The position numbers and the translations under genes were made by a program. The notes below the pieces were generated by a model. It saw only the letters and a program-made list of their open reading frames with translations, was not told where the DNA came from and ran no database searches. This document shows, one piece after another, positions 3,280 through 14,362 of a DNA stretch of 64,000 bases. Location: positions 32,001 through 96,000 of the forward strand of contig JANNVX010000086.1 in assembly GCA_031414595.1 (NCBI GenBank). Direction: 5' to 3'. Numbering within the stretch: the stretch's first letter is position 1; every line of letters starts with the position of its first letter. This DNA comes from Deinococcales bacterium. GTDB lineage: Bacteria; Deinococcota; Deinococci; Deinococcales; JAAFIG01.

Positions 3280-3561
3280 ATGGACTTAACAGAAATTACA
3301 CTTGAAGATTTTTCGCCGCTCGTAACCCAAGAATTTAAGCTCGAGGGCAGCGAGGTCGCCTTTACCTTGCTCGAGACAAAACCCTTAAATACCCATGAGG
3401 GAGCGCCACGTAGAGCTTTTTCTTTGTTGTTTGCGTCTCCAGTCCCAGCCCCTCAAGGCACATATGCACTGCTGCACACTTCGCTTGGACGGCTCGAGAT
3501 TTTTCTTGTCCCCATTGCAAAAGCTGGTGAAGGTGTGCAGCTCGAAGCGGTTTTTAGTTAG
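3280..3561 (+). CDS. DUF6916-like small protein that accompanies tail-collar gene clusters
   Basis: FSLLF...QGTY.L.H..LG.LEIFLVPI...EAVF pattern; convergent on the GNAT/tail-collar operon. Confidence 0.75.
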   Translation: MDLTEITLEDFSPLVTQEFKLEGSEVAFTLLETKPLNTHEGAPRRAFSLLFASPVPAPQGTYALLHTSLGRLEIFLVPIAKAGEGVQLEAVFS

Positions 3562-4021
3562 CACGGTGCATTTTGACATACACCCCTGTGGCTTCGGTCT
3601 CGAGTTCGGTAAAGCCCATGCGTTTGTACCAGTCCCGAGCATGATTATTGATTTCGACATGCAAGGTAATATCTAAACCAGACTTTTTTGCTTCTATAAA
3701 TAACTGCTCGAAACACCACTTGGCAATGCCGCGCTTTTGGTAGGGCGGACTGACAATAATATCCATTAACCGAATTTCGCTGCTTCTATGCACATAAAGC
3801 CGCCCGACTGGAACACCCTCCAGTAAAATCAAATCAAAAGCCGCGCCTTGGTAATGCTGATAATAGTGACTGCGTTGAGCCAAAAACTGGCTCTCGAGGA
3901 AAACTTTTTTCTGCTCCAAAGTCCACGGCACAAGACTCATCTCTTCGGCTCGAGATTCGGTATAAAGCCCGAGCAGAAACGGAATGTCCGCTTCTGCTTC
4001 GGTTTGCAAGGCAATGTCCAT
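3554..4021 (-). CDS. GNAT family N-acetyltransferase
   Basis: PVGRLYV...DIIVSPPYQKRGIA...LHVEINNHARDWYKRMGF acetyl-CoA binding motifs. Confidence 0.9.
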   Translation of the reverse strand: MDIALQTEAEADIPFLLGLYTESRAEEMSLVPWTLEQKKVFLESQFLAQRSHYYQHYQGAAFDLILLEGVPVGRLYVHRSSEIRLMDIIVSPPYQKRGIAKWCFEQLFIEAKKSGLDITLHVEINNHARDWYKRMGFTELETEATGVYVKMHRAN

Positions 4022-4028
4022 ACTGACA

Positions 4029-5042
4029 TTAAACCATGTAGGTGTTGGTGAACCCAGAGCGCAACCCAGAGCGTAAATCGTTTAAGCGTGGGTGCATTTC
4101 AGAGACCGACTCAAGAACCCGCCGAACCCCATTTTTCTCGAGGTACAGCGTATTCTGGTTTTGGTTGCGCTTAAATTCTAGCACCCCTCGAGCGGTTTGT
4201 ACTTTAGCATTGCGTAAAGCCTTTAAGAAATTTAGGTTATCGCTATTGGCAGCTTGAATCAGCAGCGCCGCACTTTCTTGCCCAAGTTGCAGCACAGCAT
4301 CTTCGCCAAAACTCGAGAAAGCAGTGGTGGCACTTAGCTTGGTTAAGGCACTGACACTGATAGGAACTCGAGCCGAACGCAGCATCTCGAGGTTGGTGGC
4401 ATCCGAGGCGATGATGTGCAAATGAGCGGGTTTGAGGGCTTTAATCTGCTCGAGAACAGCCGCCCAATCTTCGGAGACAATTGTTTGCAGAACCTGACCG
4501 CCAGCACTTTCAAAGCCGCTTCTGAAGGCATAAGGCAAGTCGTATCCTGCTTCGCGCATACTGCAAACAATCACGGACGTGTTGCCGCGCCCAATGTTAC
4601 TTTTGCGTTGGTTGGCAACAAAACCGCCCAATGCCCATTCGGATTGCCAGAGTTTTAGGCTGTTAGAAAGAATAAATGGACTGGTCTCGAGGGCTGGAAT
4701 TTTAGCACCAAATTCGTTGCAAATGGCGGGTAAGGCGTACTGCTCGAGAATCGGGCGCAGGGCATCGGCATACCCATCACCAAGCGAAACCAGTACATCA
4801 AAGGTTTTGGTCTCGAGAATTTGGGCTAAGGCTCGAGCGGCGGATGTGGTGGTGCTGCCAGCCTCGACAAAGGTAAGTTCAAAGTTCTGGTTTGGGGTTA
4901 AGCCGCTTAAAAACTGGCTCGAGAAGGCTTTGGGGGACAGTGCCAGTACCCGCAGTCTATGCGGGGCAGCTTGGGCAACAATGCCAATGGCGGGAATGGC
5001 AGCGCCAACCCCAAGGGCTTGTAAGAAATCGCGTCTTTTCAT
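4029..5042 (-). CDS. Tat-exported periplasmic-binding-protein-like (type I) protein
   Basis: Probable start ATG 5042 after GGAG. MKRRDFLQ twin-arginine signal; EAGYDLPYAFRSGFESAGG resembles the branched-chain SBP fold. Confidence 0.65.
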   Translation of the reverse strand: MKRRDFLQALGVGAAIPAIGIVAQAAPHRLRVLALSPKAFSSQFLSGLTPNQNFELTFVEAGSTTTSAARALAQILETKTFDVLVSLGDGYADALRPILEQYALPAICNEFGAKIPALETSPFILSNSLKLWQSEWALGGFVANQRKSNIGRGNTSVIVCSMREAGYDLPYAFRSGFESAGGQVLQTIVSEDWAAVLEQIKALKPAHLHIIASDATNLEMLRSARVPISVSALTKLSATTAFSSFGEDAVLQLGQESAALLIQAANSDNLNFLKALRNAKVQTARGVLEFKRNQNQNTLYLEKNGVRRVLESVSEMHPRLNDLRSGLRSGFTNTYMV

Positions 5043-5053
5043 GGGTAGACTCC

Positions 5054-5569
5054 TTATCCCCTTGGTGGGAAAACACCTTGCAGGGCAATACAAAAATTAA
5101 CCACCAAATACGGCATTTGGTTGTTGTGGGGTAGGCTACTCCCAGCCGGTGCAAGACTTGGGGCAAGAATTGTGTTAGGTGCAGCATTGACATAGGGTGT
5201 TTTGCCAACAACCCGAGCAGGCACAGAACCGCTTGGGCTGTTGGTGTCACCAACGGCATTCAATGCTCCAAAGGTGTGATTGTGCTGTGGAATCTCGGTT
5301 TCCAATAAAGTCACATTGCTTTCACCAGTGGTTTCGCCCAAGCTGTAAAACGATAAGCCAGGTCCTTGACCCGGTTGCAGTGGGCTGCGTCCTTGTAAAT
5401 TGGGTAAACCAAAGGTGGTTCGCCCGTCACCACCGTAGGTTATACCGAGCAAACTAAACAAAGCCGTATTTTGCGAAATAGATATAAGTTGTCCATCACA
5501 AGTTGCCCAGCCTCTCGGGGCAAAGTTAAAACCGACCATCCTGATTTCAGCTACAAATTGATCTGACAT
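5054..5569 (-). CDS. Phage tail-collar domain protein (microcystin-dependent protein-like), copy 3
   Basis: FVAEIRMVGFNFAPRGWATCDGQLISISQNTALFSLLG..YGGDG.TTFGLPNLQGR; C-terminal HNN.MPYL..NFCIALQG.FP. Confidence 0.9.
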   Translation of the reverse strand: MSDQFVAEIRMVGFNFAPRGWATCDGQLISISQNTALFSLLGITYGGDGRTTFGLPNLQGRSPLQPGQGPGLSFYSLGETTGESNVTLLETEIPQHNHTFGALNAVGDTNSPSGSVPARVVGKTPYVNAAPNTILAPSLAPAGSSLPHNNQMPYLVVNFCIALQGVFPPRG

Positions 5570-5578
5570 AGAAGCTCC

Positions 5579-6097
5579 TTATGTTTGCGTTGGGAAAATA
5601 CCAAACAGCGCAATAATAAAATTGACTGCTAGAATCGGTTGGATGTTGTTGTGTGGTTGTGAACCACCCGCATTACCAACGGTGCCGGCGTTCATATTGA
5701 CACTTGGACTTTCGATAATATGCAAATCAATATCGGCTACCCCAAGAGTCACAGTGCTGCTTGGTACACCTGTACTGCCTGTACTGCTCGAGACAACAAC
5801 CGCGTGGGTGTGTTGCGGGATTTGCTGGCTAATCAGTGTAACGCTTTCTGTGCCGCTTTTTTCGCCAAGGGTACGGCTACCTAACCCACTTCCTGTCCCT
5901 TGATGAACGGGTATTCGTGAACGTAAATCTGGCAGGGCAAACGTGCTTTGTCCATCGCCCCCATAAGTTGTGCCAATCAATGCAAATAAAGCGTCGTTTT
6001 GGGAAATAGCTTGTAATGAACCATCGCAAAATGCCCAACCAACAGGAGCAAAATTTCCACCGAACATCCTGATTTCACCAATATAAGGATTACTCAT
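5579..6097 (-). CDS. Phage tail-collar domain protein, copy 2
   Basis: YIGEIRMFGGNFAPVGWAFCDG...ALFALIGTTYGGDGQSTFALPDLR. Confidence 0.9.
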   Translation of the reverse strand: MSNPYIGEIRMFGGNFAPVGWAFCDGSLQAISQNDALFALIGTTYGGDGQSTFALPDLRSRIPVHQGTGSGLGSRTLGEKSGTESVTLISQQIPQHTHAVVVSSSTGSTGVPSSTVTLGVADIDLHIIESPSVNMNAGTVGNAGGSQPHNNIQPILAVNFIIALFGIFPTQT

Positions 6098-6107
6098 CTT
6101 GCTCTCC

Positions 6108-6608
6108 TTAGTTCCGACTCGGAAAAATGCCAGCTAAGGCAATACAGAAACTAATCACCGAATACGGCTGCATATTGTTGTGTGGTTGTGAACCACCCGC
6201 ATTACCAACGGTTGAAGCCTGTAAAACCGCTCCGTTATTTTGTGCCGCATAAAGTTTTGCTGCACCATTGGCAAAACTGTTATTGGTCGGTATGGCGGCT
6301 GCACTAGCACTGCTCGAGGCATTCAGGGTGTGGGTGTGGCTTGGCATTTGGCTGACAACTAAAGTATGGGATTCCGAGCCACCCACTTGCCCTTGTGTAA
6401 AACCAGACCCCATATGAATTGGGGTACGACCTTGAAAATTCGGTAAGGCAAAAGTGGTTTGCCCATTACCACCATACGTTGTGCCTAGTAAACTAAATAA
6501 GGCTTGATTTTGATTGATGGGTAGAAATTGCCCATTGCATAATGCCCAAAATTTAGGCGGAAAATTAAAAGCCATCATGCGGATTTCACCAATAAATGGA
6601 TCTGACAT
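6108..6608 (-). CDS. Phage tail-collar domain protein, copy 1
   Basis: FIGEIRMMAFNFPPKFWALCNGQ...ALFSLLGTTYGGNGQTTFALP. Confidence 0.9.
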   Translation of the reverse strand: MSDPFIGEIRMMAFNFPPKFWALCNGQFLPINQNQALFSLLGTTYGGNGQTTFALPNFQGRTPIHMGSGFTQGQVGGSESHTLVVSQMPSHTHTLNASSSASAAAIPTNNSFANGAAKLYAAQNNGAVLQASTVGNAGGSQPHNNMQPYSVISFCIALAGIFPSRN

Positions 6609-6620
6609 AAGACCCCTCCT

Positions 6621-9473
6621 TTAGAATGTTGGAACAACCACGGTACAAGTACCATAACCGGGGGTAGCACTGCCTAAAATACTTGTTTTGCCAGCAGTAT
6701 TTAAATTACTGCGTGGAGCATCTGACAACCAAGAGGTTACAGTTGCAGCACTGGTCAAAGGTGTGCCAGTTGCCCCGTGCAAATTAAAGGTATTTGCAGC
6801 GACTCGGCGCAAAAGATAGTTGTTTGCATTTACATCCGAGAAATTGATGTTATTGCTTACGGCGTTTAAGCATACGGTTGCCCCTGTGCCACCTGAAGTA
6901 CCACCTTGGACTTGAATGCCTGTAATCGGAAGCGGGTCAGTGCTTGTGGCGGTATTGCTCAGTAACGAGAGTTGTAAATTAGCGGTCGAAGTCGGTGCAG
7001 AACCAGCATTGACTAGGATACCAGCACCTTCAGCGTCAAGTACAGTATTGGTTTCAATCAAAGCCTGTAAAGTAGCTGCTTGACGCAGGCGGATGTCCAT
7101 ACCAGCACTTGCGCCAGTGTCTGCCCCAAGGTGCAAATCTATGGTGTTGCCTTTGATTCGTAACTTATGGGTTTGGGCTGGGGTATCGGCATCTATGCGA
7201 ATACCAGAACCATCCACTGTAATTAAATCTATGCGGTTATCATCTATGGTGGTGGTGGTTGCGCCACTGCTTTGGTACTGGGTGTTAATGCCATAAAAAG
7301 CATTCTCGCGGATACTGGTTTTCTCGACCTTCAAGACCATCCCTGCACTCGAGCCGACAACCGTATTGACCCTGATTCCACTGCTGTCACCTGCTTGAAT
7401 CCGCGAAGCCACTGTGGCTGCATTGCCAGAAGTTACAGCCACTGTACCAATCACCTCTAAGGTGTTGCTACTTGTACCACTGGCGGTGTACAGCACACCA
7501 TCATGGGTGGTTACAGCTGCCCCCACATTGTTGATTGTTACATCCTCGAGCCGTAGTAAATTTGTGCCAGTGTTTGGACTGGTTTCCACACCTTCGTTCT
7601 GCGAGTTGCTGATTCGCATATTTTTCAAGCTAACCGAACCAAATTGGGTGGCTAAATTTACGCCATCGGCAGTATGACCCGTTAAAATCCCGCCGCTTTC
7701 GGCAGTTGTGCCTGTACCTGTCACAGCAAACGAACCCGTGGTGTTGGTTAATTGAATGCCGTTTGCACCTCCACTCGAGGCGACTCTGGTTAAACTCACT
7801 GCCATTGTACCGTTGGTGATGTTCACAGCTTGGTTTGCACCTGCGGCAATACTGGCGTTCGTTACAGTTAGCGTACCGCCAGCCGTACCATTTAAGCCGC
7901 CAAACGTTAAGCCTTTGATGGTGTTGCCTGTGGCTACGGTCATCGGGGTTTGAACCGTTGGGGCTGTACCAGCCACCGCTAGTGTCTCTACGCCAACCAC
8001 AAGGGCTTCGCCAGAACCAATCGCTTGTTGACCATTTTTTAAGACCAAGGCAGTTGTGTTGGTGCTGTTGCCTTTGAGGTAAATAAAGTCATTGATAGCC
8101 GTGGTGTTAGCTGCCGCCACATTGAGGCTCTGGGCATTCTGGAATGGTGCGTTGCTGCGTCCGTCGCCGCCAGCCGAGGCAGCCGAATCTATGTACCAAA
8201 CGGTATTGCTTGGGGCTGCAAGGGTTGCCGAGAAATTAGGGCTGGTGCAAGTCCCATCAGAAATCTGGTAATTAAACGAATCGGCTACTCGAGAATTGAC
8301 CAATGGACGAATTGTGACTGTGCCAGTTGAAGCGTTGGCAATGCCAAGATTACCGCCGTTGGTGGTGGTAGCACTGGCAATAGCGCGGTTTTGTGGGGTC
8401 AGGGTCGCGCCGCCTAGGGCTGTAAACCGTGCTATCAGGGTAGCGTTTGCGCCCGTGTAGGCTTTTTCAGTGTTGCCAATAATGCCAGTTAGATTAGCGG
8501 CTGTGCCATTATCAAAGAAATTTCCGCCCATCCAAGCCGTGTCCACGCCTACACCCACAGTACGAACGCCGGGGATAAAGGTACTACCCGTTAAAGTTGT
8601 GCCGCACATACTGGTGATTTGTGGGCTACCGCCAAAGCTGGTGGCTCGAGCGCTTGCACCACTATTTGTGCCTTGTTCAGAAGTGCTTTCGGTGACTCGA
8701 TTGACATTATCGGTAAAGACTAAGAAGGTCATGCTATAACGGTAAGCAGGGTTGCCGTTTCCAGCGTCGCCTGCTTGTGGAACTTGCAGAGCCAGTGTAA
8801 CTGTGCCAGTTCCATTGGCGGCAATAGTACGGCTAGTGGCACTACTACGTGCCACATACGCATATTGCAAAATGCCTTCGCCTGTAATTGGATTAACATT
8901 GATTAATGACCCATTGGATGCTGTAGTCAGGGTGGTGATTTCGCTGCGCTGATAAATTTGCAAATCGGCATTATTATTGTCTACACAAACAGTGGCTGGC
9001 AAAGTGCAGCCTGTAGTTTTCATAGCATTAACAGGGATAAGATTATTGACATCAACCGTGCCACCCGCAAAGGTTTGAACATTCCTAAAAGCACTCCCGC
9101 CGCTATTATTATTCTGGCGGTATGCTACTAAGGTCAGGTTTGTACGAGCAGCCGCCGCGTTGTTGGTCACAGTAAACCGTGCCATCAGGTAACGGTTGGT
9201 GGTAGCTGGCACATCAATAGATTGAAAGACTTGGCTATTGAATACCAAGGTAGATTCAGTGATTGGTGTCAGGGCTTGGCTCGAGACTCGATTTGGTACA
9301 AATTTAGCGGTTTGTACTTTACCCTCTCCACCAAATTGAACGGTTAGGCTACCCAGCAGTGTGGGTGCAAACGGTTGCTCGAGAACTGGCGGTTTGGCTT
9401 CTGGTGTGGGCGCTTGAGGACAAGCCACCAAGAGCGCAGGCAGTAGTAAAAGTGCCGTCACATAGTGCTTCAT
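6621..9473 (-). CDS. Large surface lipoprotein: unannotated N-terminal domain, Ig-like segment and predicted beta-helix C-terminal region
   Basis: Lipobox LLVAC. Rich in T/G/N/A/S, with WYIDSAASAGGDGRSNAPF and repeated N.I....GI motifs typical of parallel beta-helices. Confidence 0.75.
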   Translation of the reverse strand: MKHYVTALLLLPALLVACPQAPTPEAKPPVLEQPFAPTLLGSLTVQFGGEGKVQTAKFVPNRVSSQALTPITESTLVFNSQVFQSIDVPATTNRYLMARFTVTNNAAAARTNLTLVAYRQNNNSGGSAFRNVQTFAGGTVDVNNLIPVNAMKTTGCTLPATVCVDNNNADLQIYQRSEITTLTTASNGSLINVNPITGEGILQYAYVARSSATSRTIAANGTGTVTLALQVPQAGDAGNGNPAYRYSMTFLVFTDNVNRVTESTSEQGTNSGASARATSFGGSPQITSMCGTTLTGSTFIPGVRTVGVGVDTAWMGGNFFDNGTAANLTGIIGNTEKAYTGANATLIARFTALGGATLTPQNRAIASATTTNGGNLGIANASTGTVTIRPLVNSRVADSFNYQISDGTCTSPNFSATLAAPSNTVWYIDSAASAGGDGRSNAPFQNAQSLNVAAANTTAINDFIYLKGNSTNTTALVLKNGQQAIGSGEALVVGVETLAVAGTAPTVQTPMTVATGNTIKGLTFGGLNGTAGGTLTVTNASIAAGANQAVNITNGTMAVSLTRVASSGGANGIQLTNTTGSFAVTGTGTTAESGGILTGHTADGVNLATQFGSVSLKNMRISNSQNEGVETSPNTGTNLLRLEDVTINNVGAAVTTHDGVLYTASGTSSNTLEVIGTVAVTSGNAATVASRIQAGDSSGIRVNTVVGSSAGMVLKVEKTSIRENAFYGINTQYQSSGATTTTIDDNRIDLITVDGSGIRIDADTPAQTHKLRIKGNTIDLHLGADTGASAGMDIRLRQAATLQALIETNTVLDAEGAGILVNAGSAPTSTANLQLSLLSNTATSTDPLPITGIQVQGGTSGGTGATVCLNAVSNNINFSDVNANNYLLRRVAANTFNLHGATGTPLTSAATVTSWLSDAPRSNLNTAGKTSILGSATPGYGTCTVVVPTF

Positions 9474-9637
9474 TGTTCACCCCCCAAAGTATCTTGGAGT
9501 TCGTCCAAGGGATTATCTGGGAAGCCTGTTGTGCCTATGGGTAAGGACACACCAGTCATCGAATGCCATTGGTGCTTTTCAAGTTGTGGCGTGTAATACG
9601 TCTTTTTTGTGAAAATCGGATCGGTCGGGATCATCAT
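9470..9637 (-). CDS. Unannotated 55-aa peptide with a YxxPxL RiPP-leader-like motif, translationally coupled to the lipoprotein
   Basis: Strong RBS AAGGAGGA then ATG 9637. Translates MMIPTDPIFTKKTYYTPQLEKHQWHSMTGVSLPIGTTGFPDNPLDELQDTLGGEQ; its TGA overlaps the lipoprotein ATG (ATGA). Confidence 0.75.
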   Translation of the reverse strand: MMIPTDPIFTKKTYYTPQLEKHQWHSMTGVSLPIGTTGFPDNPLDELQDTLGGEQ

Positions 9638-10039: not shown

Positions 10040-11212
10040 ATGATTGCACAGGTTGTCGGCTACGGAATGATTGATGGACTTGGGAATAATCCAAAAGACT
10101 GCTTTGCCAACATGGTCAATGACCAAGATTTTGTGACTGACCTGAGTTTTTTTGTCAATGGTCAAATCACCAGAGGGATTCAAGTCAATTATCAAAATTT
10201 GGTTTTGCCGACTGGTTTTTCAGATAAGGGCATCACCCAAACCCAGCGCCTAGCGATGCACGCCACGGCTCAAGCCATTACCCATGCTAATTTACCGCAT
10301 AGCTCCAATGTTGCGGTAATTCTGTCCACAGTCAGTAACGATGCTGAATTTATCGAAGAATACTTTTCTAAGTTTATCGAGAACCGCCGGGTCAGTCCTC
10401 GAGCCGTGGTCAATCGTTTACCAGACATTGCTTGTAATCAAATTGCTTGTCATTACGATTTTCGCGGGGTTTCGTATTCGTTGTTTGCCTCTTGTAGCAC
10501 TGGTTTAATGTCCATAGACAGCGCCATGAAATTGCTCGAGGACTACGATTATGTGGTGGTTGGCGCAGCCGACGCGGGGTGTTTTGGTTTTTCGATGAAG
10601 TATTTTGCGTATATTGGAGCTTTGGGTAATTTTAGTGCGCCTTTTGATGTTTCCCGCAAAGGTTTTTGCATGGGTGAAGGGGCTGGTACACTGATTTTAC
10701 AAAGTAGCGAAAAAGCCAAAGAGTACGGCAGTACCGTTTATGCCACGCTTTATCCGGTTGGCATGGCATCGGATGCGTATGATGCGACTTTTCCACATCA
10801 GGACGGACGCGGCGCAATTTTAGCCATAGATAAAGCCATGAAGCACATTCCAAGCAACGGAATTCACGCCGTCAATGCCCATGCGACTTCAACCCCGATT
10901 GGCGACGCGGTAGAATATAAGGTCTTAGCCGAAAAGTTTCCCCATATTCCGATTTACGCCCCAAAAAGTAAAATCGGGCATACCTTAGCTGCCTCTGGGA
11001 TTCTCGAGACAATTTATGCAATTGAATCCATGCGTCACGGAGTTATTCCACAAATTCATAACTTAAAACACTGTGATTTTTTGCGTGAAGAAGGCAAACT
11101 CAATTTCACCTCGAGCCAATTTGGTGCTGAACCGACCCTGAGAACCCTAAAAAACTCTTTTGGTTTTGGTGGCAAGTGCGCCTCGATGGTGATTGAAGTG
11201 ACAAGGGACTAA
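10040..11212 (+). CDS. Beta-ketoacyl-ACP synthase (FabF/FabB-like), stand-alone
   Basis: Catalytic Cys-His-His: ASCSTG, AHATSTPIGD, KSKIGHTL; C-terminal NSFGFGG. Confidence 0.9.
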   Translation: MIAQVVGYGMIDGLGNNPKDCFANMVNDQDFVTDLSFFVNGQITRGIQVNYQNLVLPTGFSDKGITQTQRLAMHATAQAITHANLPHSSNVAVILSTVSNDAEFIEEYFSKFIENRRVSPRAVVNRLPDIACNQIACHYDFRGVSYSLFASCSTGLMSIDSAMKLLEDYDYVVVGAADAGCFGFSMKYFAYIGALGNFSAPFDVSRKGFCMGEGAGTLILQSSEKAKEYGSTVYATLYPVGMASDAYDATFPHQDGRGAILAIDKAMKHIPSNGIHAVNAHATSTPIGDAVEYKVLAEKFPHIPIYAPKSKIGHTLAASGILETIYAIESMRHGVIPQIHNLKHCDFLREEGKLNFTSSQFGAEPTLRTLKNSFGFGGKCASMVIEVTRD

Positions 11213-11230
11213 AGGCGTAAGATAGCTCCA

Positions 11231-12460
11231 ATGAAGCCGAAATTCTCCTATGCTTGGGTGATTGTTGCAGTCACGGCAGTGGTCTTGTTGGTCACGGCTG
11301 GCGCTCGCAGTGCGCCAGGGGCTTGGCTGATCGAAATGGAACGTGACACGGGTTGGTCGAGGGCGAGTTTATCCTTGGCAACTGGTCTGGGTTTAATTTT
11401 ATTTGGTTTGGGTGGTCCTATTTCTGGGTTGCTGATGGCAAAACTAGGGGTTCGGGCAGTCACCGCCGCCAGTTTAATCATCACAGCCCTCGCCATGTGG
11501 CTTTCAAGCCGAGTGCAGACCCAACTCGAGTTAAATCTGTTCTTTGGGTTGTTGTCTGGTATTGGTACAGGTTTGGTTGCCAGTGTGCTTGGGGCGACCA
11601 TCGCCAACAGGTGGTTTGTCGAACGGCGTGGTTTGGTGATTGGTATTTTTGGGGCAAGTACCAGTGCTGGGCAGTTGGTCTTCTATCCACTGCTAACGAC
11701 TTTAGCGGTCAATATCGGTTGGCGCTCGAGTGCCTTGGTCTTAGCCAGTATTACGATTGCGATTCTTGTGCCAGTCTTGTTTTTAATGCGTTCCGACCCG
11801 TCTGAAGTTGGGCAACGTCCGCTTGGAGCAAATCTGGACACGCCACTAACCGCACCCCAAGCCGACCTTGGAATCATGAGTAAAGCACTCCGTCACCCTG
11901 ATTTTTGGTTACTGGCAATTACTTTTTATATTTGTGGGGCGACCAGCAATGGTTTAATCGGTCAGCATTTAATTCCTCATGCGGTGGATCATGGTTTAAC
12001 CCAGCCTATTGCAGCCAGTATGGTTGCACTCATGGGAGCTTTTAATTTTGTGGGAACAATTGCTTCGGGTTGGCTAACCGACCGTTATGACCCGCGTCGT
12101 TTGCTCTTGGTGTATTACTTTTTTCGTGGTGTTAGCCTGCTTTTTCTGCCCTATATGCACGATGTTGGCGGACTGAGTATTTTTGCGGTTCTTTTTGGTT
12201 TAGATTACATTGCGACTGTGCCACCAACTGTGATGTTGGTAGCCAAAACCTTTGGCAGACACAATGTTGGCATTGTCTACGGTTGGGTCTTTGCGGCACA
12301 TCAGTTAGGAGCGGCAATGGCAGCTTGGATTGGTGGTTTGGCAAGGGATAATTTGGGTGATTACACCTTGGCGTTTACGGTAGCTGGAATAATTGCCGTG
12401 CTTGGTGGGTTCTTGGCATTGGGTATTCGTCGGGAAACTCGAGAAGTGGCTATGCGCTAA
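11231..12460 (+). CDS. MFS transporter
   Basis: About 12 hydrophobic segments; GWLTDRYDPR loop motif; RWFVERRGLVIG. Confidence 0.9.
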   Translation: MKPKFSYAWVIVAVTAVVLLVTAGARSAPGAWLIEMERDTGWSRASLSLATGLGLILFGLGGPISGLLMAKLGVRAVTAASLIITALAMWLSSRVQTQLELNLFFGLLSGIGTGLVASVLGATIANRWFVERRGLVIGIFGASTSAGQLVFYPLLTTLAVNIGWRSSALVLASITIAILVPVLFLMRSDPSEVGQRPLGANLDTPLTAPQADLGIMSKALRHPDFWLLAITFYICGATSNGLIGQHLIPHAVDHGLTQPIAASMVALMGAFNFVGTIASGWLTDRYDPRRLLLVYYFFRGVSLLFLPYMHDVGGLSIFAVLFGLDYIATVPPTVMLVAKTFGRHNVGIVYGWVFAAHQLGAAMAAWIGGLARDNLGDYTLAFTVAGIIAVLGGFLALGIRRETREVAMR

Positions 12461-12562
12461 ATATGATATTTTTCACATTTGAGTCCCTGACGCGATATTG
12501 TAAGATTATTGTAAGGAATTAGTAATGATTGGTTGGTAGAATTCTAGCTGTAGGAGTTTATC

Positions 12563-14362
12563 ATGAAATCTTTAAGTCAAATTACCGGTTTAGCACTCAG
12601 CGCTTTTATTGGCGCAGTGTTTGCTTCGTGCAGTACACTAAAAACCGAAGCCAAGCAAGAATACCTACTAACCTTAAATTTAACTACCAACGACACCCAG
12701 GAGACTGTCTTGCAACGTTACGGCGGAGCAGTGCTTTCTTTTGACTCACAAGCAGGTTTTGCAATTCTTAAAACTGATCGTTTGCCTGTCAGTAACGACT
12801 CGGCAGTTAAACACCTCGAGCCAAATACGACCCTCGAGACCACCGATGCCAGAATCAACCTTAATCAACCCAACATCAGCACCCAAGGCGCAAGCTCAGG
12901 GACTGCCAGTGTTGGTATGAGTGGCTGGGCTACATGGTCAAGTGGTTGGTCAACGTGGTCTAGTGGCTGGTCTACATGGTCAAGTGGTCAGACCTTACCG
13001 TTTACGCAAGCCCAAACCAGCAATGCTTATATGAGCAGCCGTGTGCCTCAAGCCCATGCGATTGCCCACAATTTTGCTGCTGGTGTGATTGTGGCTGTTT
13101 TAGACACGGGTATTGACCTGAACCACCCCGGATTTGCTGGGCGTTTAATCCAACCAGCCAAGCGCTGGAATTTTGTGGACAAAAACAACGATGTTACCGA
13201 AGTCAATAATGGTAAAGGCTACGGGCATGGTACAGCCGTAGCTGGCATTATTTTACAAGTTGCTCCCAAAGCCACAATTATGCCACTCAAAGTCTTGGAT
13301 TCAGATGGCAAGGGGGACTTAGATGATGTGATTGCTGCGATTGATTACGCGGTTAAAAATGGCGCTCGAGTGATCAATATCTCTTTGGGTTCAAAAGAGT
13401 ATTCAGAAGCCTTAAAAACCGTGATTAGCAATGCCATTAGTAAAAATGTCTATATTGTGGCTTCGGTTGGTAATGACAGTAAGAAAAATAAAGCTTCTTA
13501 CCCCGCAGCCATGGGTTATTCATTTGGAACAGGCAAACTCATTGGGGTTGGCAGTATTAACGACAACGATCAAATCTCGAGTTTTTCCAATAGTGGCGAT
13601 GATGTCTTTATGTACGCACCTGGCGAAAACGTGCAAACTTATGCGCCAAATGGTCGAACTGCCAATGCTACAGGAACTTCTTTTGCTGCGCCTTTGGTGA
13701 CTGGGGCAATGGCACTGGCGTATGGTGAAGCCTATGACGAAACCTCTAGCGCTTATTTGAGAGAAATTGGCACGACTCTTGGGTCATCAAATGATAAAAA
13801 ACGGGTTTGGTGGCGCAACTACGCCGAAGTAGACCCTGATTCAACTTGTAAAACACCAAATGGCAGTTGGTGTTTTGCCCAAGGCACACTTGATGTCGAA
13901 AAATTGCTCTTGAGTATTCCTGATTTCAAGCCAGCCAAACAAAAAAGTAAAGTAGATTTTGTAAGAAATGGTGGTTTTGAACTGGATGATTTCCAAGGTT
14001 GGAAAGCCACTGGAATCACAACAACCGCACCCTTTAGCGGGACAACCAGCATACGAATGTACCCGATTGGCAAACTGACTCAAAAAATTAATGGTTTATC
14101 GCCTAATACAAACTACCGTTTAACAGCTTGGGCAAAGGTGGATACAAAATCAGATTCGGTTAGTTTCTTGGTTAAAGACTTTGGAGGCAGTGCAGTCAGT
14201 GTAAGCACCACAACTCAACAGCATCAGTTTTTCAAGCCAATCAATCTGGTTTTCACCACGGGTACAAAAAACACATCGGCTGAACTGGTGGTTGACCGAA
14301 ATTCGTCGTTTTCCCTAGCCGATGCCTACATTGATTCGATTAGCATCACCCAAGTTTGGTAA
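12563..14362 (+). CDS. S8 (subtilisin-like) lipoprotein peptidase with C-terminal carbohydrate-binding-like domain
   Basis: Lipobox FASC. Catalytic triad motifs VLDTG, HGTAVAG and GTSFAAP; C-terminal NGGFE..W CBM4/9-like domain. Confidence 0.9.
   Translation: MKSLSQITGLALSAFIGAVFASCSTLKTEAKQEYLLTLNLTTNDTQETVLQRYGGAVLSFDSQAGFAILKTDRLPVSNDSAVKHLEPNTTLETTDARINLNQPNISTQGASSGTASVGMSGWATWSSGWSTWSSGWSTWSSGQTLPFTQAQTSNAYMSSRVPQAHAIAHNFAAGVIVAVLDTGIDLNHPGFAGRLIQPAKRWNFVDKNNDVTEVNNGKGYGHGTAVAGIILQVAPKATIMPLKVLDSDGKGDLDDVIAAIDYAVKNGARVINISLGSKEYSEALKTVISNAISKNVYIVASVGNDSKKNKASYPAAMGYSFGTGKLIGVGSINDNDQISSFSNSGDDVFMYAPGENVQTYAPNGRTANATGTSFAAPLVTGAMALAYGEAYDETSSAYLREIGTTLGSSNDKKRVWWRNYAEVDPDSTCKTPNGSWCFAQGTLDVEKLLLSIPDFKPAKQKSKVDFVRNGGFELDDFQGWKATGITTTAPFSGTTSIRMYPIGKLTQKINGLSPNTNYRLTAWAKVDTKSDSVSFLVKDFGGSAVSVSTTTQQHQFFKPINLVFTTGTKNTSAELVVDRNSSFSLADAYIDSISITQVW

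Follow-up and report, generated by a model that had tools for sequence, protein, structure and literature searches.

Why would a bacterium of the order Deinococcales carry three consecutive genes for phage-like tail-fiber tips between a lipoprotein gene and a gene for a protein with an export signal? The question is raised by an eight-gene locus within the 64,000-nucleotide stretch of DNA analyzed here (the window). The locus encodes a short peptide (pep55), a lipoprotein, three paralogous proteins with the Collar domain of tail fibers (colA, colB, and colC), a periplasmic-binding-protein-like protein with a twin-arginine translocation (Tat) signal, a GNAT acetyltransferase, and a DUF6916 protein. 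We conclude that the cassette is a conserved unit and that an ancient triplication of a phage tail-fiber tip, made up of a collar and a variable head loop, gave rise to colA, colB, and colC as its members A, B, and C; both conclusions are strongly supported. We further consider it probable, with moderate confidence, that the locus is the local version of a widespread, horizontally mobile, non-phage bacterial cassette, in which a three-part tail-fiber-tip heterotrimer and a tailspike-like surface protein would serve recognition. The genes, with lengths in amino acids (aa), are as follows.

9470-9637, minus strand: pep55, a 55-aa peptide
6621-9473, minus strand: lipoprotein, 950 aa, with a lipobox ending V-A-C
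6108-6608, minus strand: colA, a 166-aa Collar (PF07484) paralogue of clade A, with HTH at 6330-6338
5579-6097, minus strand: colB, a 172-aa Collar paralogue of clade B, with HTH at 5804-5812
5054-5569, minus strand: colC, a 171-aa Collar paralogue of clade C, with HNH at 5276-5284
4029-5042, minus strand: Tat-signal, type I periplasmic-binding-protein-like protein, 337 aa
3554-4021, minus strand: GNAT acetyltransferase, 155 aa, PF00583 (Acetyltransf_1)
3280-3561, plus strand: signal-less DUF6916 (PF21880) protein, 93 aa, convergent with the GNAT gene and overlapping it by 8 nucleotides (nt)

The three paralogues match the Collar model, which is 57 positions long, well above its cutoff (colA, E = 8.4e-27; colB, 4.4e-29; colC, 5.7e-28; 93 to 101 bits versus a cutoff of 24), and all three match tail-fiber PHROGs. 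HxH motifs are established metal-binding sites in trimeric phage fibers, and those ascribed to the three collars by the original prediction, HTH(T), HTH(A), and HNH(T), are confirmed in the sequence. In alignments of 36 sequences per paralogue, both histidines of the motif are invariant, and a P-H-N-N stretch downstream is invariant or nearly so in each. colA has an additional weak Pfam match to Gp10_C; among solved structures, it matches the long tail fiber PDB 8kec (E = 9.5e-6), whose P-S-H-Q-H aligns with the P-S-H-x-H of colA, and, weakly, T4 gp12 (E = 0.084 to 0.23). Variation is localized to residues ~100 to 140, where the share of the majority residue is 0.33 to 0.47. Over the rest of the chain this share is ~0.6 to 0.96 and mostly at least 0.7, with dips to ~0.5 to 0.65 just ahead of the head and to 0.42 in one colB block. 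The variable stretch lies where a distal binding loop would be expected. In collars encoded by separate genes (split collars), the domain runs from residue 1 onward, and because it begins at the N terminus, these proteins have no signal peptide. Residue 2 is Ala, Ser, or Gly in 34/36 (A), 33/35 (B), and 25/25 (C) sequences; residue 3 is paralogue specific (E in A, Q in B, and D in C).

When 218 collars taken from 73 loci of the three-collar type are placed in one tree, they separate into clade A, with 74 sequences and a support of 0.93, clade B, with 72 sequences (0.86), and clade C, also with 72 (0.87). One member of each clade is present in 71 of the 73 loci, in the order A-B-C in 60, B-A-C in 10, and B-C-A in 1; the two remaining loci comprise one that reads A-B-A and one that is short by a member after extraction. 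Collar matches were found in 26 of 151 genomes sampled from the phylum, with three high-scoring collars in 14 genomes, six in 2, twelve in 1, and two in 1, and a single weaker match in 8. The source genome has only the three collars described here. Larger sets also occur: the twelve matches of one phylum genome (G155) are spread over four contigs, and an IMG/VR contig of 5456 bases that is filed as viral (L101) has nine collar genes, arranged as three consecutive A-B-C triplets.

A gene-neighborhood survey bears out the view that the cluster is a unit, as it was recovered both in relatives and across phyla. All 11 relatives whose loci were fetched first have a lipoprotein-like gene, collars A-B-C with positional orthology, and the binding-protein gene, and tblastn places a GNAT in 9 of them (one miss lies at a contig end) and DUF6916 in 8. 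The order of the eight genes is identical across three families of the same order, including two genomes of the third family; a shorter cassette, which lacks the binding-protein gene, occurs in one phylum genome. Because flanking genes are common only within the genus, we take the unit to extend from the peptide through DUF6916. Plasmid pDFI2 of Deinococcus ficus has a near-identical annotated layout, with a 55-aa open reading frame (ORF), two hypothetical proteins, three copies of "tail fiber protein," an "ABC transporter substrate-binding protein," and a GNAT.

A cross-phylum scan for this pattern, using one genome per species, yielded at least 610 matching stretches. The best 79 loci were analyzed; they are labeled Acidobacteriota, Chloroflexota, Bacteroidota, Verrucomicrobiota, Alpha-, Beta-, and Gammaproteobacteria (judged by genus name), Paenibacillus/Neobacillus, Actinomycetota, Eremiobacterota, and others. 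Exactly three collars were counted in 68 of these loci. The others have six (3 loci), five (2 loci), four (2 loci), two (1 locus), or one (3 loci), and several of these odd counts come from loci at contig ends. The most faithful companions of the triplet are the GNAT, with a homologue in 67/79 loci by tblastn, and DUF6916, which was detected in 45 by tblastn and in 66 with a purpose-built profile. The region of the lipoprotein that spans the cadherin domain and the start of the helix is found in 29/79 loci, and pep55 and the genes flanking the cassette in the window are found in none of the 79. Among the 75 loci whose flanks are long enough to tell, 63 have an ORF of at least 600 aa no farther than 2.5 kb from the triplet, and in 54 of the 63 it is on the same strand. 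Of 18 such large proteins examined, 14 include Big_9 or cadherin-type domains, and Pfam Beta_helix matches 2; surface anchors vary by lineage, with single examples of a type IX secretion system (T9SS) tail and of SLH. In an independent metagenome set, split triplets were present in 80/80 loci, and the 16 loci with at least 2 kb on both flanks included 15 with a GNAT, 8 with DUF6916, and 13 with the lipoprotein domain. The window has this cross-phylum pattern: clades A, B, and C once each, a GNAT, DUF6916, and a large beta-helix/cadherin-like protein. No paper describing the cellular cassette or naming DUF6916 was found in a literature search that covered neither subscription journals nor supplementary files; a search of secretome and vesicle studies listed nothing relevant on collar proteins, and the PilV-collar fusion of PMC9881135 is distinct from the cassette.

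How would three such similar proteins assemble? The original prediction proposed one fiber tip built from all three paralogues, and several lines of evidence support this indirectly. We consider a colA:colB:colC 1:1:1 heterotrimer likely because the ancient clades occur once per locus, because related proteins carry three units in a single chain, and because a heterotrimer of this kind is known from a virophage. The single-chain relatives are found among 953 longer homologues of colC (E ≤ 1e-20). The 120 best of these have three collar units in 106 cases, two in 11, four in 2, and one in 1. According to profile scores, 22 of the three-unit chains comprise one unit per type, mostly in the order B-A-C; in the other three-unit chains, which are largely PEP-CTERM proteins, the units score about equally for A, B, and C. 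Several longer homologues bear the source name "microcystin-dependent protein"; MrpB/"MdpB" of Microcystis (COG4675), a cellular protein to which no function has been assigned, has the same description, and we take it to be linked to the collar family. In virophage DSLV2 and the Aquatic Virophage 1 lineage, three consecutive co-oriented PF07484 genes encode proteins of ~170 to 190 aa, each with a collar and a variable head. According to that study (J Virol 2025), the three proteins copurify 1:1:1 as a complex of ~55 kDa, and the fibers are ~16 nm long (PMC12724248). The virophage genes lie beside the virus capsid gene and, as described there, are accompanied by neither a GNAT nor DUF6916 and by no Tat partner or giant surface protein (PMC12724248). 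The triplet of the window, unlike that of the virophage, has cellular neighbors; the PF05065 capsid model, which is blind to virophage capsids, was negative. Triplets on viral contigs (L105-L107 and L111) fall outside clades A and C, which suggests that they are separate triplications. A complex prediction for colA, colB, colC, and the mature binding-protein-like protein, run without controls, gave scores of 0.24 and 0.13 relative to a mark of 0.32.

Two alternatives bear on the collars themselves. Each paralogue could instead form its own homotrimer, as do T4 gp12 and gp37, giving three heads with three specificities. The solved phage relatives matched by sequence (PDB 1ocy, 1pdi, and 5iv5) are homotrimers, and one of the three virophage homotrimers is reported to have looked fairly stable in simulation (PMC12724248). 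However, homotrimers would not require what is seen here, namely, one member per clade in 71 of 73 loci in an almost fixed order, copy numbers that are multiples of three, and 106 of 120 longer relatives with three units per chain, 22 of them with one of each type; nor do they fit the copurification of the virophage proteins as a heterotrimer (PMC12724248). We therefore regard separate homotrimers as unlikely. That the locus is the remnant of a decayed prophage or tailocin is far less likely still and, in our view, hardly credible. The collars do match tail-fiber PHROGs, and the public annotation reads "tail fiber protein." However, the source genome (4.49 Mb in 120 contigs, 94% complete) has no match to sheath PF04984, baseplate J PF04865, or HK97 capsid PF05065, a result that does not extend to the tail-tube family, which was not searched for. 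This agrees with the earlier claim that capsid, sheath, and baseplate genes are absent and with the original description of the cluster as non-phage. Besides the collars, the only cassette protein that matches a PHROG is the GNAT, weakly and to a generic acetyltransferase family (E = 1.4e-8). Every reading frame of the cassette is intact, and this holds between families and phyla, where the frames are conserved; housekeeping genes flank the cassette; and only 97 matching stretches were found in a viral collection, versus at least 610 in genomes.

The preferred reading, a cellular heterotrimer, also differs from the better-known collar proteins. The tips of T4 fibers (gp12 in PDB 1ocy, 1pdi, and 5iv5; the C-terminal PF21939 domain of gp10; and the long tail fiber in 8kec) have the collar domain and the HxH motif in common with the proteins described here. 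They are, however, homotrimers on the long shafts of a virion, whereas the collars of the window have the domain from residue 1, no shaft or baseplate, and three paralogues in place of one gene. A cellular PF07484 protein to which no function has been assigned, RhiB, is encoded in rhiABC(D) of Rhizobium leguminosarum together with RhiA and RhiC, which have no Pfam domain (PMC13133039). As described there, rhiABC(D) has no triplet, GNAT, or DUF6916 (PMC13133039). PADLOC-DB 2.0 defense models identified no family in any of the eight cassette proteins.

Where the head works is suggested by its single-chain relatives. Most of these bear signals, and some collar units are embedded in giant extracellular proteins, so the head is probably at work outside the cytoplasm. 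A signal-like N terminus is present in 83 of the 106 three-unit chains and a PEP-CTERM-like end in 53 of the 120 longer homologues, as counted with crude, home-made patterns; PF07589 is precomputed on several of the longer homologues. A large family of ~470 to 600 aa combines a signal-like N terminus, three short-headed collar units, and a PEP-CTERM-like anchor; its units begin with a displaced C-terminal strand and are apparently circularly permuted. Giants of more than 1000 aa (P0112, P0123, and P0124) have three collar units around an M10-type metalloprotease motif, along with cadherin, FG-GAP, or DUF11 domains. In these proteins, the head is fused to the type of surface protein that the window encodes in a gene of its own. 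The metagenome set described above came from a scan with one single-chain three-unit protein as the query, and all 80 loci returned had split triplets. Of 401 genomes of one other phylum searched in the same context, 12 had matches, all of which had internal stops or covered one unit.

If split collars leave the cytoplasm, a signal-bearing partner may carry them, and the gene adjoining colC encodes a candidate. Its product has the Tat signal K-R-R-D-F-L-Q followed by a hydrophobic stretch and A-Q-A, with the RR nearly invariant in 16 sequences; the Pfam TAT_signal match is below the cutoff (E = 0.0016, 18.7 bits versus 22.7), as, narrowly, is that to Peripla_BP_6 (E = 5e-7, 30.2 bits versus 31.7). 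A structural model (pLDDT 76.9) has the two-lobe alpha/beta fold of a type I periplasmic binding protein, and Foldseek matches it to the ABC substrate-binding protein 4zpj (E = 1.8e-12, TM 0.64), with LivK and AmiC as the next matches. Neither the 13 neighboring proteins nor the annotated D. ficus locus includes an ABC permease or ATPase. The gene adjoins the triplet in 11/11 of the first-fetched relatives, in 4/5 further genomes of the phylum, and in 4/79 distant loci. A conserved tail in the last 9 residues, S/T-G-F/W-x-N-x-Y-L/M, is disordered in the monomer model. It is common to the order, to four Tat-signal copies from Chloroflexota (Anaerolineae, Anaerolineales, Chloroflexota, and Chloroflexia), and to a signal-less Bacteroidota copy (L035), and it could be a docking peptide.

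Tat signals recur beside the triplet in other phyla. In 41/79 loci, a crude pattern that admits some false matches found a Tat-like ORF no more than 2 kb from the triplet; the density is 1.63 per 10 kb there versus 0.36 farther out. A scan of 18 such ORFs identified 11 as DUF6916 and 2 as PhoX and assigned the other 5 to no family, one of these 5 matching TAT_signal only. A third type of Tat-signal protein (~230 to 260 aa, no Pfam domain family, one copy matching TAT_signal only) occurs directly after colC in several loci of Chloroflexia, Betaproteobacteria, and Thermoanaerobaculia/Acidobacteriota (L030:10549-11322, L040:10550-11281, L070:5548-6333, L071:4360-5142, and L099:4986-5681). TatC is encoded in the source genome. 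The Tat pathway is known to export hitchhiker complexes, such as HybO/HybC of Escherichia coli hydrogenase-2 and DmsA/DmsB of dimethyl sulfoxide (DMSO) reductase. The likeness lies in signal-less folded subunits with a cofactor or metal, encoded beside a single twin-arginine partner; the difference is that binding between collar and Tat protein is here putative and that an obvious Tat partner is missing from almost half of the cassettes. Speculatively, Tat hitchhiking would be the most economical export route for signal-less collars.

The GNAT matches PF00583 (E = 2.4e-10, 41 bits versus a cutoff of 20.7) and has the acetyl-CoA motif Q-K-R-G-I-A. One speculative role is the acetylation of the conserved Ala/Ser collar N termini. 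The DUF6916 protein (PF21880, E = 1.4e-24) is the sole copy in the source genome, and a protein atlas queried with it returned DUF6916 clusters and nothing else. Within the phylum sample, DUF6916 occurs in 5/151 genomes, each time on the contig of the triplet and within ~5 kb of it. A Tat-signal form is present in 29/79 distant loci, 25 of which have a signal-less copy too. In view of the Tat signals on many DUF6916 copies, we reject the idea that DUF6916 and the GNAT are a toxin-antitoxin pair.

The lipoprotein has the lipobox L-V-A-C at residues 15 to 18, with Cys18 invariant in 12 orthologues. Its predicted structure (pLDDT 71.7) comprises a beta-sandwich (~38 to 255), a disordered linker, a cadherin/Ig-like domain (~364 to 418), and a right-handed parallel beta-helix (~464 to 942). 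The model thus agrees with the earlier assignment of a beta-helix, though Pfam misses it and reports only a weak Cadherin_5 match. With VIA-align, the helix aligns with the polysaccharide lyase RbmB of Vibrio cholerae (9ozl; Z = 24.5, root mean square deviation of 3.1 Å over 313 residues), the Sf6 tailspike (2vbe; Z = 23.6), and the pneumococcal adhesin PfbA (3zpp; Z = 22.0). Foldseek with the full-length model found nothing at E ≤ 0.001 (best E = 1.4e-3). The likeness to these three proteins is one of fold in a predicted model, at 8 to 10% identity, and, unlike them, the protein of the window is lipid anchored and has an extra, lineage-specific N-terminal domain. Lipoprotein matches were found in 18/41 genomes: two genera of its family have orthologues over the full length, and another family has shorter matches. 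Its putative association with the collars rests on synteny. The N-terminal domain (~300 aa) is also a multicopy lipoprotein module of the lineage, with 15 matches in the source genome (contigs C62, C39, C54, C49, and others); in relatives, a paralogue of it is often found just past DUF6916 (L012 14506-16323, L015 13175-15001, and L263 9651-10271).

Taken together, these features suggest how the cassette might operate. One copy each of colA, colB, and colC would form a single pseudo-threefold heterotrimer, in which the six invariant histidines of the three HxH motifs would clamp a metal ion, as in phage T4 fibers, and the poorly conserved stretch of ~40 residues would serve as the ligand-binding tip. 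The head would act outside the cytoplasm with the beta-helix lipoprotein in glycan or surface recognition (adhesion); the adhesin or sensor role put forward in the original prediction is likewise a conjecture. More speculatively, the collars may fold in the cytoplasm and exit by Tat while bound to a signal-bearing partner, here the binding-protein-like protein and in other phyla the Tat-signal DUF6916, with signal-less DUF6916 as a small adaptor or chaperone. The most complete version, a domesticated head that is capped by the GNAT, folded in the cytoplasm, escorted by Tat, and docked on the beta-helix protein as a glycan-reading "cellular tail fiber," is a tentative and, on balance, doubtful proposal.

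Several observations count against parts of this picture, and some of them favor a different one, in which the collar trimer, the GNAT, and DUF6916 act in the cytoplasm (e.g., as a sensor or modifying complex) and the surface protein is a coregulated neighbor. Split collars, the GNAT, and the signal-less DUF6916 are all without signal peptides, and 38/79 loci have no Tat-like ORF in the 2 kb on either side of the triplet. One cassette of the same phylum has neither the binding-protein gene nor a Tat-form DUF6916. The collar fold does not itself need Tat, because the N-terminal signal-like segments of the single-chain relatives lack a twin-arginine motif and are Sec type by eye. The counts of signal peptides, PEP-CTERM ends, and Tat signals share the crudeness of the patterns behind them. 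The named models nearest to the GNAT are RimI-type N-terminal acetyltransferases, with TIGR01575 rimI matched far below its cutoff (E = 5.3e-8, 33 bits versus 86). DUF6916 was found in 5 of the 18 phylum-sample genomes with at least two collars and not in the other 13; as it is always near the triplet, yet missing from these 13, it appears to be cassette specific but dispensable. A cytoplasmic complex is nevertheless rather unlikely, given the signal-like N termini and many PEP-CTERM-like ends of the three-unit relatives, the fusion of collar units into extracellular giants, the Tat-signal DUF6916 of 29/79 loci, and the large secreted protein that adjoins the triplet in 63/75. Another alternative is a secreted antagonistic or matrix-remodeling device, in which the beta-helix protein would be a lyase or depolymerase of polysaccharides and the collar head would direct it to those of a competitor or of the cell itself. 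The best matches to the helix (RbmB lyase, phage tailspikes/depolymerases, and alginate lyases/epimerases) and the M10-type protease fused to collar units in some relatives are in keeping with this idea. However, the PfbA adhesin is nearly as good a match, and no immunity gene or toxin domain was seen among the cassette and its neighbors. Across phyla, the collars are 55 to 64% identical, and identity to colA is 52 to 64%, which is high for a receptor-binding protein and argues against an arms race. We find such a device improbable and retain recognition by a heterotrimeric head as the reading we favor.

The remaining features concern the operon and its surroundings. Co-orientation and tight packing of the gene row, with DUF6916 convergent to it, were part of the original prediction and are confirmed, and all eight genes lie at the coordinates given there. 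The seven minus-strand genes are spaced by -4, 12, 10, 9, 11, and 7 nt, and an AGGAG-like or G-rich ribosome-binding site lies 5′ of six of the seven operon starts, that of the GNAT being the exception. The binding-protein-like gene most likely starts at ATG 5042 (M-K-R-R-D-F-L), rather than at TTG 5093, because AAGGAG precedes ATG 5042. Scans for promoters (11 found versus 7.5 ± 2.7) and terminators (11 versus 9.7 ± 3.2) were at chance level, and GC content reveals no island. The flanking genes encode a threonine synthase, a metallo-beta-lactamase-fold protein, a ketosynthase, a major facilitator superfamily (MFS) transporter, and a subtilase. Positions 10040-14362 (plus strand) hold the ketosynthase (FabF-like, far under the fabF cutoff), the MFS transporter (lactate or oxalate/formate type), and the subtilase, which has CBM_4_9; of these, the MFS gene alone is positionally kept in another species of the genus.

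The peptide at the head of the operon, pep55, has no signal, and its stop codon overlaps the lipoprotein start (ATGA). It is preceded by a strong ribosome-binding site, AAAGGAGG, and has the conserved motif Y-x-x-P-x-L ... T-G/L ... P-I-G. The peptide is kept 5′ of the lipoprotein gene in relatives, where a regular expression for the motif is positive in 10/11 and a variant is visible by eye in L012; the motif is also present in D. ficus pDFI2. Copies of the peptide lie at L260:1428-1595, near 6539 in L018, and near 7010 in L019 (minus strand). The same expression found the motif in none of 159 loci from other phyla, its occurrences being confined to the cassettes of this order, and 5 close homologues were found in 5.8 billion proteins. 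Lasso-peptide leaders have the consensus Y-x-x-P-x-L-x3-G-x5-T-x, which the Deinococcus-type copies of pep55 fit exactly and the window copy fits in part. A lasso-peptide precursor was considered and rejected, as no cyclase, leader protease, or recognition domain is encoded among the neighbors and no acidic residue occupies core positions 7 to 9.

Proteins of the PF07484/COG4675 "MdpB" type are common in bacteria, and their routine labels, "tail fiber protein" and "microcystin-dependent protein," suggest prophage debris. This locus and its relatives indicate otherwise, as they form an ordered, ancient, cross-phylum cassette with its own acetyltransferase, a cassette-specific family (DUF6916), frequent Tat partners, and a large surface protein. 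A family with no assigned role thereby acquires a specific setting in which it can be tested. Cultured nonpathogenic carriers exist (e.g., D. ficus, on plasmid pDFI2), making such tests practical. If the reading we favor is true, heterotrimeric fiber tips would extend from a virophage to cellular life, and the cassette may represent a new class of surface recognition devices, with collar heads that are perhaps a new kind of Tat hitchhiker cargo.

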